Shown piece by piece: positions 36,303-58,515 of a stretch of 64,000 nucleotides of DNA. The notes under the pieces are model-generated. The model made no database searches and was not told the DNA's origin. It saw nothing but the letters and a program-made list of their open reading frames with translations. A program made the translations under genes and the position numbers. Origin of the DNA: Escherichia coli (GTDB lineage: Bacteria > Pseudomonadota > Gammaproteobacteria > Enterobacterales > Enterobacteriaceae); assembly GCF_003334335.1 (NCBI RefSeq), contig NZ_QOWQ01000021.1; one strand, written 5' to 3'. Numbering within the stretch: position 1 is the stretch's first letter; the number at the start of each line of letters is the position of its first letter.

Positions 36303-36947
36303 TCAGAAAAGAACACTGCCTAATAAAACACCAACAACGAAACACATTCCTGTTTCTTTCGGGTATTTTCTAATTATTTGCTGAAAATTCATCTGTAATT
36401 GACTACCGGCAGAATTGTTGGCAGTTAATTTCTTTTCTCCTTCCACTGATTGTTGGTCTAACCAGGAAAGAGCCATCTGAAGCTGAGAACGAGTAAGATC
36501 GTTTAAGCGACCCGTTCCGAAATTGATATGGCAATAGCGGATAAGTTTTTGACGAAGCACTCCATCTTCACTATTACGAAGTAAAATACTTACAAGCGCC
36601 TTACGCGCATCATGATCTTTACATCGTTCAAGCATCGCACACAGAAAGCTCTCTGCGGTCTTATATTGATTCATTGTTATATCATCAATACTGTCTACAC
36701 CAATCTCTGCATGCAATTTTTGCCAAATAATAAACGCCTCGGTATTGCTGGCATCTACAATAGCAGCAACTAATCTATTTAATGCCTTCCGTTGCCCCTT
36801 AAGTAAGGGGCGTGGATCACTGTTATTGCTCGAAGGAATTGCGATATTGACGGTATGAGAGCCATCATATCGCCCTATCTGAATATTCTTTTCTTGGTAA
36901 TCTCGCCCAGCAATACGATTATCTGAACCGTTTGAGTTGACCGTCAT
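36303..36947 (-). CDS. hypothetical 214 aa protein with C-terminal hydrophobic anchor (cargo between repressor and integrase)
   Basis: Long ORF with good SD (ggaggtgg before ATG), C-terminal TM-like tail MCFVVGVLLGSVLF; N-terminus shares NRIAGRDY motif with the upstream repressor C-terminus. Confidence 0.7.
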   Translation of the reverse strand: MTVNSNGSDNRIAGRDYQEKNIQIGRYDGSHTVNIAIPSSNNSDPRPLLKGQRKALNRLVAAIVDASNTEAFIIWQKLHAEIGVDSIDDITMNQYKTAESFLCAMLERCKDHDARKALVSILLRNSEDGVLRQKLIRYCHINFGTGRLNDLTRSQLQMALSWLDQQSVEGEKKLTANNSAGSQLQMNFQQIIRKYPKETGMCFVVGVLLGSVLF

Positions 36948-36962
36948 GCCACCTCCTTGCTA

Positions 36963-37367
36963 TCACTTACCCTTTGTTTCGTTATAGTCACGGCCTGCGA
37001 TGCGGTTATTCCCGCCAGAGATATTTAACCCTCCCCCTGATGACTGACTCTCCTTTTCAGTGACTGCACCTTTCAAAGCACCAATCACCGCGTTTTTCAC
37101 ATCTAGTGAGGCACTCCGAAAACGTGTGATCAACTCCTGCTCATCATCGTTATAAGTTTCAGGTGAATGAATTCCCAACACGACATACTGAACATCAAGG
37201 CCAAAACGCGACAACGCTGATAAGTACGCCGCATCAGGAAAGCTATCCCCTTTCTCATATCTAAGTTGGGTTAACTTTTTAACCCCACCAATATCACTCA
37301 TAGCGACTTGGCTAAGACCCAGCCGTTCCCTTTCCTCACGCAACCGTTGGCCAATATCATTTTTCAT
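36963..37367 (-). CDS. XRE-family HTH repressor (immunity repressor, P2 C / CI equivalent)
   Basis: 134 aa; N-terminal HTH_XRE (IGQRLREERERLGLSQVAMSDIGGVKKLTQLRYEKG); leftward, divergent from the cox-like gene as in P2 immunity regions. Confidence 0.8.
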   Translation of the reverse strand: MKNDIGQRLREERERLGLSQVAMSDIGGVKKLTQLRYEKGDSFPDAAYLSALSRFGLDVQYVVLGIHSPETYNDDEQELITRFRSASLDVKNAVIGALKGAVTEKESQSSGGGLNISGGNNRIAGRDYNETKGK

Positions 37368-37376
37368 ACAAAAACC

Positions 37377-37405
37377 TTGACAGGTATCTTTTTTGATACC
37401 AAAAT
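37377..37405 (+). promoter_or_regulatory. candidate early promoter with embedded operator palindrome GGTATC-N6-GATACC
   Basis: TTGACA -35 hexamer, 17 bp spacer containing the perfect inverted repeat ggtatcttttttgatacc, then caaaat; lies between divergent repressor and cox-like genes. Confidence 0.5.
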
Positions 37406-37442
37406 ACTTTCATGAGCCATTAGATGAACACAATATACCACT

Positions 37443-37661
37443 ATGAAACAAGTTGTTCACGACACCAGATCACGGATTCCGCGTAACACAGCTACAGGAC
37501 CGCGACTGGCACTTCGATTGTCAGCAGAAGAGCGAGCCGTCATTGATGAAATGGCAACTAAAGAACAGCGCTCATCCTCTAACATGGCACGCATGATCTT
37601 CCTTCGTGGCCTTGAGATTATCCAGAAAGAGCAAAACCAATCTTCATGCTCAGGAGGTTAA
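37443..37661 (+). CDS. ribbon-helix-helix DNA-binding protein (Cox/Cro/Apl-equivalent first early gene)
   Basis: 72 aa; RLALRLSAEERAVIDEMATKEQRSSSNMARMIFLRGLE fits a strand-helix-helix pattern; first rightward gene after the repressor. Confidence 0.6.
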   Translation: MKQVVHDTRSRIPRNTATGPRLALRLSAEERAVIDEMATKEQRSSSNMARMIFLRGLEIIQKEQNQSSCSGG

Positions 37662-37665
37662 CGGG

Positions 37666-37869
37666 ATGCAAGGTATAACAATAAACATCAACGTTAATGC
37701 CCCTTACGTATCTCTGAAGAAATACGCCGAGATAACAGGCATTCCTCTTAACACATGCAAAAAGATGTTGGCTGACGGTCGAATTATTATCCGCCCCAAA
37801 CGCGCCAAAATGGAAAAACCAGAAGTAAACCTTATAGCTATGTTAAAAGACGCAATAGCCAACAGCTAA
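37666..37869 (+). CDS. small HTH regulatory protein (AlpA/excisionase-like fold, tentative)
   Basis: Internal Met of track ORF 37606..37869; YVSLKKYAEITGIPLNTCKKMLADGRI looks like a short HTH. Confidence 0.5.
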   Translation: MQGITININVNAPYVSLKKYAEITGIPLNTCKKMLADGRIIIRPKRAKMEKPEVNLIAMLKDAIANS

Positions 37870-40105: not shown

Positions 40106-40338
40106 GGTGAAGCCATGGTCGCCATCCTGAATGTGTGTTGCTGCCCCCCCCTGAACGTGGAAAGAAAAGCCCGCGCATCGCTGCGTTTATTCCGCGACGG
40201 CGTGCGGAATTTTTCACGCATAAAACCCCACGACTACCTGGTAATAAGAATCGGTTTCCGCTGGCGATTACTGAGCAAAAACAACGGGGCGTCATGGGAT
40301 TTATTAACGCACGAAACCTATAACAAAGAGGCCGCGTT

Positions 40339-41319
40339 ATGAGCAAAGAACTGTTATCCGGTACGCCACTGAAATGGGTGGGCGGAAAAAGCCGCATCAT
40401 GAACACACTGAAGGCGCACCTGCCAGAAGCCGACTGTCTGGTTGAGCCGTTCGTGGGCGGCGCATCGGTATTCATGAACACCAGTTACAAGCGTTACATC
40501 CTGGGTGATTCCAATGGTGCGCTGATTAATTTCTACCGGCAAGCTAGGGACAACACCGACAGCCTGATCGACGAGGCGAAAACCCTGTTCCTGAACCACA
40601 ACAACAGGGGTGACTATCTCATCATTCGCGAAACCTTTAACGCAGAGAATCATGCCTTCCTGAACAGCAGAACGGGAATAAGCGACCGCCGTGAACTGCG
40701 ACTGGCCGCCATGTTTTTGTACCTGAACCGACACAGCTTTAACGGTTTGTTCCGCGTGAACGGAAAAGGCGATTTTAACGTGCCTTTCGGCTGCTACCGC
40801 AAGCCCTACTTCCCTGAGCGTGAAATCCGCGCATTTGCAGACAAGGCAAACAGCACCCGAACGCTGCTTATCCACGCAGATTTTAAGGATACGCTGAACT
40901 CTGCCAGTCACCTGTTCGGCATGGGCAACACGCTTTGCGTGTACTGCGATCCCCCTTACCTGCAATTCAGTGGCCGGGACAATTTTACCGCCTACGGAAA
41001 ACCATTCGATGAAGACGAGCACGTTCGTCTGAGGGCAGCGCTTGACCGCCTTTCACAGGAAACGGGCGGCATGACCAGCATCACCATCTCCAATTCCGAC
41101 ACACCGGAAACACGACGCATTTATCGGGGTTACCGGATGAACTGCATACAGGCACCACGAAGCGTTGGCGCAAGAACCCGGGAATCAGCACCGGAGGTTA
41201 TCGCCACCCTGAGACAGTGCGACGCCTGCGGTCACCATGGCGGTGGCTACTGCCCGGACTGCGGACCTGTAACGGGAGATGCAACTTACAGCGTGATGTT
41301 TACCCCTGCCAGTACGTGA
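40339..41319 (+). CDS. Dam-family DNA N6-adenine methyltransferase with C-terminal Cys-rich extension
   Basis: 326 aa; FxGxG SAM motif (VEPFVGGASVF) and catalytic DPPY; C-terminus CDACGHHGGGYCPDCGP looks like a zinc ribbon. Confidence 0.85.
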   Translation: MSKELLSGTPLKWVGGKSRIMNTLKAHLPEADCLVEPFVGGASVFMNTSYKRYILGDSNGALINFYRQARDNTDSLIDEAKTLFLNHNNRGDYLIIRETFNAENHAFLNSRTGISDRRELRLAAMFLYLNRHSFNGLFRVNGKGDFNVPFGCYRKPYFPEREIRAFADKANSTRTLLIHADFKDTLNSASHLFGMGNTLCVYCDPPYLQFSGRDNFTAYGKPFDEDEHVRLRAALDRLSQETGGMTSITISNSDTPETRRIYRGYRMNCIQAPRSVGARTRESAPEVIATLRQCDACGHHGGGYCPDCGPVTGDATYSVMFTPAST

Positions 41320-56544: not shown

Positions 56545-58515
56545 ATGAGCAAAAAACACTTTGAACTGATTACTGCCACCAACCGCGCAGAATTCGCTGA
56601 AAAAGTTAACAAGCGATTACAGGAAGGCTGGGAACTTCTCGGTAATGCCGGTATTGCATCAGAGCCGGGAGTCCCCTGGTATCTCATGCAGGCTATGGTT
56701 TCAGGCAGTGATGACCAGGGAGGCACCATTATCACCCCGACATCCGACAGCGAACCGGAGTGGTATTACGTTGTGGTGAGCGCTGGTCAGTCCAACTCTA
56801 TGGCATACGGTGAGGGGTTACCTCTCCCGGACAGTTACGATAAACCCGATTCGCGCATTCGCCAGCTGGCACGCCGCAGCACCGTAACCCCGAGCGGAAA
56901 AGCCTGTGCCTATAACGACATCATTCTGGCGGATCACTGCCTGCATGACGTGCAGGATATGAGCCAGTACAACCACCCGAAAGCCGACCTGAACAAAGGT
57001 CAGTATGGCTGTGTGAGTCAGGGATTGCACATTGCGAAGCGCCTGCTGCCATTTATCCCGGCAAATGCGGGGATCCTTCTGGTCCCATGCAGCCGTGGCG
57101 GTTCCGGCTTTACAACCGGTGATGCGGGGCAATTCAGCGAGATCGGCGGCGCAACTGAAAAATCCTGCCGCTGGGGAACGAACACGCCGCTGTACAAGGA
57201 TTTAATCAGCCGCACAAAAGCAGCGCTGGCGAAAAATCCGAAAAACGTCCTGCTGGCCGTCTGCTGGACACAGGGCGAGGCAGATCTTGAGAAAGAACAA
57301 AACGCCGCACAGCATAAAGATCTTTTCACAGCCATGGTGAAGCAGTTCCGGGCTGACCTGGCCGATGTTGCGAAGCAGTGCAACCAGGGCAACCCTGAAA
57401 GCGTGCCGTGGATTTGTGGAGATACCACCTACCACTGGAAAAAAACCTACGAAGCACAGTACGCAACCGTGTATGGCGGATACAAAAACAGCACTGAGAA
57501 GAATATTGTTTTTGTGCCTTTTGTTACGGATGAGTACGGGAAAAACACCCCAACAAACGAGCCGACAGAAGATCCGGATATTGCGGAAGCGGGTTATTAC
57601 GGTGCCGCATCCCGCAGTAGCGGAAACTGGGTAAGCCATCTGCGTGGAACGCACTTCAGCTCATGGGCCCGCCGGGGCATTATTGCCGATCGCATGGCGT
57701 CAGCAATCCTGCTTAACGTCGGCCGCACGCTGCCATTTATTGCGGGTACAGAGCCGGAACGCGTGGCAAAACCATCACAGGATGCACCGGGCGGCATCAG
57801 TAAGCCATCTTCACCGGAAGCAGAACAACCGGCAGTCAGACCGGGGCCGGTCACGCTCATGAGTCTGCTGGCATCATCTCCTGAACTGGAAAGCCAGGGC
57901 TGGACGCTGAGCGAAGGCAAAAACGGGGCCAACACACCAAAACAACTGAAAGACACGCTGATCGGTGATGAGGAAGCAACAGGGAAAAAAGCCCTGAAAC
58001 TGACCAAACAGGAAGGCAATACCTGGTATCTGGAGCATAAGGCCGGTAATGGTGCTGACCTTCTGAAAAATGGCGGGACTGTAAGTTGCCGATTCAAAAT
58101 CGAGGGTGAGCTGAAAAAAGACCAGTACGCAATGGCGATGTACTGGAAAACATCAGCATTACCGCAGGATGTGAAATTACTGGGGGCAGATCCAAATAAT
58201 TTATTGCTCTCATTCTTTCTTCAGACAGACAGCGCAAACCTGAATCTGATGTATCACAAAACGCCAAACGAACAACTGGGAACCTTTGGTCAGTTCAATA
58301 ACAACTGGCACACCATAGCGTTTCGTTTTGCGGGAAACAACAGCACCCAGGTAACACCGGTTCTGGATGGCGTGGACGGAAAACCGTTCATGCTTTCCAC
58401 ATCAAAAGCCGATGTTACCAACGACACGTTACGCGTGACCGATATCACGTATCGGCCGACCTATACCGTACTGATTGACAGCCTGAGCGTTGTCGTAAAT
58501 CAGCCACCGGCATAA
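56545..58515 (+). CDS. NanS-p-like prophage sialate O-acetylesterase (DUF1737 + SGNH hydrolase + C-terminal domain)
   Basis: 656 aa; N-terminal MSKKHFELITATNRAEFAEKVNKRLQEGWELLG (DUF1737-like), SGNH block VVVSAGQSNSMAYGEG, overall size as in prophage NanS-p esterases. Confidence 0.75.
   Translation: MSKKHFELITATNRAEFAEKVNKRLQEGWELLGNAGIASEPGVPWYLMQAMVSGSDDQGGTIITPTSDSEPEWYYVVVSAGQSNSMAYGEGLPLPDSYDKPDSRIRQLARRSTVTPSGKACAYNDIILADHCLHDVQDMSQYNHPKADLNKGQYGCVSQGLHIAKRLLPFIPANAGILLVPCSRGGSGFTTGDAGQFSEIGGATEKSCRWGTNTPLYKDLISRTKAALAKNPKNVLLAVCWTQGEADLEKEQNAAQHKDLFTAMVKQFRADLADVAKQCNQGNPESVPWICGDTTYHWKKTYEAQYATVYGGYKNSTEKNIVFVPFVTDEYGKNTPTNEPTEDPDIAEAGYYGAASRSSGNWVSHLRGTHFSSWARRGIIADRMASAILLNVGRTLPFIAGTEPERVAKPSQDAPGGISKPSSPEAEQPAVRPGPVTLMSLLASSPELESQGWTLSEGKNGANTPKQLKDTLIGDEEATGKKALKLTKQEGNTWYLEHKAGNGADLLKNGGTVSCRFKIEGELKKDQYAMAMYWKTSALPQDVKLLGADPNNLLLSFFLQTDSANLNLMYHKTPNEQLGTFGQFNNNWHTIAFRFAGNNSTQVTPVLDGVDGKPFMLSTSKADVTNDTLRVTDITYRPTYTVLIDSLSVVVNQPPA

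Follow-up and report, generated by a model that had tools for sequence, protein, structure and literature searches.

A conserved palindrome filling the early promoter spacer of a P2-like prophage as the probable single operator of its immunity repressor

The locus described here belongs to a complete P2-like prophage of about 37 kb, inserted between tRNA-Leu and yecA in Escherichia coli. The window, by which we mean the whole stretch of 64 kb (64,000 nucleotides) that was analysed, holds the switch region, and the remaining 9 kb of the prophage lie in L085. The prophage encodes a P2-family capsid, a GPO scaffold, terminase, portal, a gpA-type replication endonuclease, ogr and late-control D. 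Its DNA matches E. coli chromosomes at 100% identity, and with a threshold of 80% DNA identity it is present in 524 of 5426 complete E. coli genomes. Among named phages, Escherichia phage 520873 (Peduoviridae, Xuanwuvirus) alone shares this DNA region, and it alone gives a full-length match to the repressor. Beyond it, tblastn against the named phages gave only partial HTH matches, distant ones at 38-57%, in phages of Burkholderia, Ralstonia and Pseudomonas, and no characterised relative was found among them. RefSeq labels the region only as "transcriptional regulator / hypothetical protein". A literature search on Xuanwuvirus, on P88/pro147/520873 and on P2-like palindromic operators returned no account of the present switch, and no reports of binding, footprints or transcription starts for this phage or its relatives. 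The genes and signals at the locus are the following, with coordinates in the window:

36303..36947, minus strand: second gene of the leftward (lysogenic) operon, 214 aa, with a C-terminal membrane anchor and an N-terminal motif that matches the repressor tail.
36963..37367, minus strand: immunity repressor gene, 134 aa, Cro/C1 (XRE, HTH_3).
37375..37378, minus strand: probable Shine-Dalgarno sequence of the repressor gene (AAGG), as read from the sequence.
37377..37382, plus strand: -35 hexamer TTGACA of the early promoter, Pe, from the promoter scan; TTGAC is kept in relatives.
37383..37400: probable operator dyad, perfect, 18 bp, assigned from sequence, conserved register and covariation with the recognition helix; on the plus strand GGTATC (37383-37388), TTTTTT (37389-37394) and GATACC (37395-37400).
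37400..37405, plus strand: -10 hexamer CAAAAT of Pe, after a 17-bp spacer; the family pattern is CAnnAT.
37412, plus strand: predicted transcription start of Pe, placed by spacing and alignment at the A of a conserved TCAC, 7 nt beyond the -10.
37432..37440, minus strand: predicted extended -10 (TGGTATATT) of the repressor promoter, Pc, from the promoter scan and a nearly invariant block.
37443..37661, plus strand: first early gene, Arc-like ribbon-helix-helix (RHH) protein, 72 aa; phrog_3431, E=2.2e-28, with a weak match to Pfam RHH_5.
37666..37869, plus strand: second early gene, Cox-like excisionase/regulator, 67 aa; phrog_575, E=2.8e-27; annotated in phage 520873.

The initial annotation had drawn attention to a perfect 18-bp palindrome, GGTATC-N6-GATACC, lying between a TTGACA -35 hexamer and a -10-like element in the short gap that separates the divergent repressor and RHH genes. 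Each part of this description holds: the repeat is perfect, the two hexamers are 17 bp apart in a register that is kept in every relative examined, and the gap between the divergent genes is 75 bp. The same annotation took the RHH gene for the cox-like gene, which is wrong. The RHH protein is Arc-like, and the Cox-like gene is the next one in the operon. The RHH gene has no recognisable Shine-Dalgarno sequence, and it is kept as a protein in relatives. In its place RefSeq/PGAP calls an ORF of 45 aa on the minus strand (37457-37594) that has no family matches. The RHH gene is also uncalled in L087, probably an annotation error there as in the window.

The dyad fills the spacer of Pe, and its final C is at the same time the first base of the -10 hexamer. 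In the promoter scan TTGACA-17-CAAAAT matches at 10 of 12 positions, the -10 being the weak element (4/6). Pe is the only promoter on either strand of the window in which an exact TTGACA stands 16-18 nt from a -10 with at least four matches of six, and it is where the early operon of the prophage begins. The -35 hexamer lies 10 bp to the right of the repressor start codon. The probable Shine-Dalgarno sequence of the repressor gene overlaps the first two bases of this -35 on the opposite strand, and relatives keep CCTTGAC or CTCTTGAC at the overlap. The switch is therefore extremely compact.

Perfect inverted repeats of the 6-N6-6 type are not rare. There are 24 in the window, and 222 when spacers of 0 to 10 are allowed. 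For this reason, the case for an operator is built here on position and conservation, and not on the palindrome alone. That such a repeat should coincide exactly with a given promoter spacer has a probability of about 4^-6, or 2.4e-4. The perfect dyad occurs once in the window, where its three copies with two mismatches all lie outside the prophage. A search for a second or distal operator in the window and in the remaining 9 kb of the prophage, allowing up to three mismatches, gave matches at chance level only. We also weighed a half-site-like TATACC at 37434-37440 as a possible second operator of low strength, and rejected it because it is constant in lineages whose dyads differ.

Homologues of the repressor are numerous, about 200 at 40-93% identity in Enterobacterales, Gilliamella and others. 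A scan of IMG/VR returned 80 loci, which comprise 43 distinct repressor/dyad combinations (43-93% repressor identity) and 29 distinct dyads. In all 43 combinations an 18-bp dyad stands directly 3' of a TTGAC-type -35 and takes in the first base of a CAnnAT -10. Among the 29 dyads, 163 of 174 arm pairs are complementary, and the central two nucleotides are always A/T. The outer GGTA/TACC is nearly constant, and the inner arm bases vary symmetrically, giving arms such as GGTATC/GATACC, GGTATAA/TTATACC, GGTACG/CGTACC and GGTGTG/CACACC, and further GGTACTCG/TGAGTACC, GGTGCAGA/TCTGCACC and GTTATCTT/AAGATAAC. The abundance of 6-N6-6 repeats in the window might suggest that the palindrome is a chance feature or the site of a host factor, but the relatives leave this view almost no credibility. 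The arrangement is kept, with compensatory changes in the arms, across Enterobacterales and more distant hosts, and the dyad sequence shifts with the phage repressor, as would not be needed if a constant host factor bound it.

Some departures from the pattern should be noted. Positions 1-2 of the left arm are variable (TGTATC in strain Bongo, GATATC in L023), and so the core that is truly contacted may be shorter than 18 bp. The repressor homologue of strain Bongo is labelled "uL18 family ribosomal protein", a probable annotation error. In L038, at the end of an IMG/VR contig, the sequence past the dyad centre is an apparent reverse complement of the 3' end of the repressor gene itself. Such a join would amount to a fold-back chimera at the palindrome, in all probability an artefact of the assembly or of the library.

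The repressor matches PHROG repressor/regulator families as well as Pfam HTH_31 and HTH_3. The profile of the family, when compared with the PDB, matched the P22 c2 repressor at E=1.3e-6. P22 c2 is the closest Cro/C1 HTH, at a sequence identity of only 27%. In the AF2 model, the five helices of a Cro/C1 HTH DNA-binding domain are followed by two C-terminal helices and a disordered tail (residues 103-134). Superposed on the P22 c2-operator complex, the model fits at 1.6-1.9 A. The recognition helix comprises residues 31-39, with K30-K31-L32-T33-Q34-L35 in the alignment to P22 c2, where L32 stands opposite Val33. P22 c2 binds an 18-bp palindromic operator as a homodimer, and thymine methyl groups pack around its Val33 in each half-site (PMC5175364). 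The likeness concerns the N-terminal domain of P22 c2 and its 18-bp operators.

In the relatives, the identity of helix residue 32 goes with positions 4-5 of the half-site as follows:

residue 32 L: positions 4-5 AT (GGTAT), 22 of 23 loci.
residue 32 Q: positions 4-5 AC (GGTAC), 12 of 14 loci.
residue 32 W: positions 4-5 GT (GGTGT), 3 of 3 loci.
residue 32 R: positions 4-5 GC (GGTGC), 2 of 2 loci.
residue 32 K: positions 4-5 AA, 1 of 1 locus.

The three exceptions are hybrid dyads with one arm of each kind. The covariation is not phylogenetically independent, and permutation statistics therefore overstate its significance. Across the dyad, positions 4-5 of the two half-sites are 10 bp apart, as one would expect if an HTH dimer read them. 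The rule also proved correct for a homologue that was fetched independently, the tail-less P0101 of E. coli (L087). It has a KKLTQL helix, and its dyad, GGTATAAATAATTATACC in the upstream arrangement TTGACT-GGTATAAATAATTATACC-AATAT, agrees with a prediction made from the rule beforehand. In the Salmonella homologue P0117 (VTKLTQL), CATATATTTTTTTATACC stands at the position of the dyad, with an intact AT core and degenerate outer bases on the left.

The other candidate binder of the dyad is the RHH protein. RHH is encoded by the first gene downstream of Pe, and P22 Arc and other proteins of the RHH class use dyad operators that sit between the -35 and -10 elements; the Arc operator of P22 lies in the spacer of Pant. 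The present locus resembles Arc/Pant in the placement of the operator and in the presence of an Arc-like gene, and a conserved RHH protein might in principle recognise the conserved outer GGTA/TACC. The dyad could then serve an autoregulatory or Cro-like RHH, either instead of the HTH repressor or in competition with it, as with CI and Cro of lambda. The natural variation argues otherwise: unlike the Arc operator, the dyad follows the HTH repressor and not the RHH. There are three independent groups in which RHH is at least 95% identical, yet the dyads differ and follow the helix of the repressor (L040 vs. L047; L046 vs. L050 and L051; L049 vs. L065, L068, L070 and L083). At least 10 lineages without RHH and Cox keep the dyad, and in these the first early gene encodes a phrog_925 HTH protein. 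The Mantel correlation with the dyad is 0.61-0.72 for the recognition helix and 0.37 for RHH, the latter no higher than the 0.36 of the non-HTH regions of the repressor and therefore suggestive of shared ancestry only (these figures are descriptive, since the loci are related). An RHH operator is thus unlikely.

The palindrome could also act as RNA. The dyad is always transcribed, since any promoter of the repressor must lie to its right, and a hairpin in the 5' leader of the repressor mRNA could affect stability or translation. The minimum free energy fold of the predicted leader does include the 6-bp hairpin of the dyad. Also, the 11 non-complementary arm pairs in the 29 dyads include seven that would be G-U in the leftward transcript vs. 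three in the rightward one, but this split is not significant and the cases are interrelated. The leader fold is unexceptional when compared with shuffled sequences (z=-0.77; 44 of 200 shuffles fold as well). An element of structure only would need neither the fixed length of 18 bp nor the fixed register with the hexamers nor the conserved outer bases, and the dyad co-varies with protein residues. We consider a role as an RNA hairpin very improbable, more so than a role as an RHH operator.

The initial annotation had proposed that the dyad is a repressor operator that occludes the early promoter. The conserved position, the covariation with the recognition helix and the exclusion of RHH all support the proposal, and the dyad is very probably the single operator of the immunity repressor, one that would silence Pe by filling its spacer. 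The anatomy of the site, its conservation, its covariation with the recognition helix and its independence of RHH are observations; from here on we infer physical binding, the dimeric state of the repressor, both transcription starts and the effects on Pc.

A repressor dimer would set its recognition helices, one per groove, into two major grooves that are separated by one helical turn, and read GGTAT on one side and ATACC on the other, the A/T-rich centre being probably uncontacted. Because the site occupies the whole spacer of Pe and the first base of its -10, the bound repressor would exclude RNA polymerase. Silencing of Pe would shut the rightward early operon (RHH, the Cox-like gene and on to the replication genes), and lysogeny and immunity would thereby be maintained.

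How the repressor gene itself may be transcribed is suggested by the promoter scan, which gives TGAACA-16-TATATT with an upstream TG on the minus strand (37459..37432) as the candidate Pc, with a predicted start near 37425. The extended -10 lies inside a block of about 30 bp, 37419-37449 (TTAG..GATCACAATATACCACTATGA), that is nearly invariant across lineages even though their repressors are only about 55% identical. The block may also hold a binding site for RHH or Cox. It spans the start codon of the RHH gene (TTAG..GA(T)CACAATATACCACTATGA), and most relatives have a GATC site there; the prophage encodes a Dam-type methylase. With the predicted starts at about 37412 and 37425, Pc would probably be face-to-face with Pe. 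The polymerase footprint at Pc would then overlap that at Pe, and repression of Pe should relieve interference on Pc. The Pc transcript would have to cross the operator, and repressor bound some 25-40 bp downstream of the Pc start could become a roadblock at high concentration.

The organisation invites comparison with P2 and WPhi, which are phages of the same kind and share the order int, leftward repressor, and rightward early operon with a Cox-like gene. The present prophage differs by the extra Arc-like RHH gene before cox and, more importantly, by its operator. The C repressors of P2 and WPhi recognise two direct repeats, 22 or 34 bp apart from centre to centre (PMC1904263, PMC2995052), whereas here there is a single inverted repeat, with no direct-repeat pair beside Pe. 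P2 C, whose structure has been solved (PMC2995052), is absent from the PDB matches of the family profile at E<=0.1, and no similarity to it was detected in that comparison. Phage 186 with its CI and Apl is also P2-like and has an HTH repressor at the early promoter. The promoters of P2 and 186 are face-to-face (PMC1904263, PMC5001618), as Pe and Pc may be here, and in 186, repression relieves the transcriptional interference between the opposed pR and pL (PMC5001618).

The protein-DNA interface has its nearest likeness outside the P2 group. The present system would act in the manner of HTH repressors with palindromic operators, those of the 434 type or P22 c2, within a P2-type genome layout. 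P22 c2 has in addition a C-terminal domain cleavable through RecA, and binds six operators cooperatively, whereas the present repressor has 134 aa, no peptidase domain and one operator. The lambdoid CI switch similarly combines several cooperative operators with an S24 cleavage domain, in contrast to the one operator and the missing cleavage domain here. Stable lysogens do not usually rely on one operator that lacks cooperative partners. In sum, the genetic switch is of an ordinary kind and the mechanism is textbook; the literature searched has no earlier account of one in this repressor family.

The finding adds a third type of immunity module in P2-like phages, with a palindromic operator, to the P2 C and 186 CI types. 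With the residue-32 rule (L/Q/W/R to AT/AC/GT/GC), one can predict from sequence to which immunity group a prophage of this P2-like type belongs, and the repressor/operator family offers a compact set of orthogonal pairs.

Searches for a route to induction gave negative results. The 134-aa repressor has no Pfam match to an S24 peptidase or a RecA-mediated autocleavage domain, and no antirepressor or tum gene is annotated in the prophage. LexA boxes (CTGT-N8-ACAG, up to one mismatch) occur at a chance-level count, none of them convincing within the prophage, and an SOS-controlled antirepressor route through a LexA box was rejected on this count.

The disordered tail of the repressor offers a different lead. 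The motif NRIAGRDY is common to the tail (36984-37007, minus strand; context ..GGNNRIAGRDYNE..) and to the N-terminus of the membrane-anchored 214-aa partner encoded by the next gene of the operon (36897-36920, minus strand; context ..GSDNRIAGRDYQE..). Between the two genes, each of the eight motif codons has a different third base. Across lineages (L040-L084) the motif shifts in parallel in both proteins, as in L078, which has FHGAVSGGVAARDIINN in one and FQGNVDGGVAGRDIVNQ in the other. In 12 representative lineages, the similarity of the two motifs within a locus exceeded that in all of 20,000 re-pairings. In the tail-less homologue P0117, the integrase gene lies directly downstream and there is no partner gene. 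The partner belongs to phrog_5825 and is weakly Flk-like; Pfam gave nothing significant for it. AF2 predicted no defined or confident pairing for a fused pair.

The layout of the two genes is similar to that of amyloid-signalling pairs, such as Bab/Agp of E. coli, in which the C-terminus of a small protein is paired with the N-terminus of the adjacent product (bioRxiv 10.1101/2024.11.07.622273), a likeness that we take as a lead only. We entertain as a rather improbable idea that the operator forms the DNA side of an immunity module that has not been described so far, in which the repressor would be controlled via a tail motif that co-evolves with the membrane-anchored partner. If so, the partner might act by tethering, templating or releasing the repressor, and thereby couple a membrane or infection signal to operator occupancy and induction.

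Elsewhere in the prophage there are genes of a cargo-like character. A gene for a 656-aa DUF6645 protein (56545-58515, plus strand) follows the lysis genes and precedes the tail/virion-morphogenesis genes. A ParE-family toxin-like gene (40126-40353, plus strand) adjoins the Dam methylase gene, and a Hok/Gef gene lies at the end of the prophage (4135-4275 in L085). All three are possible accessory or defence genes.
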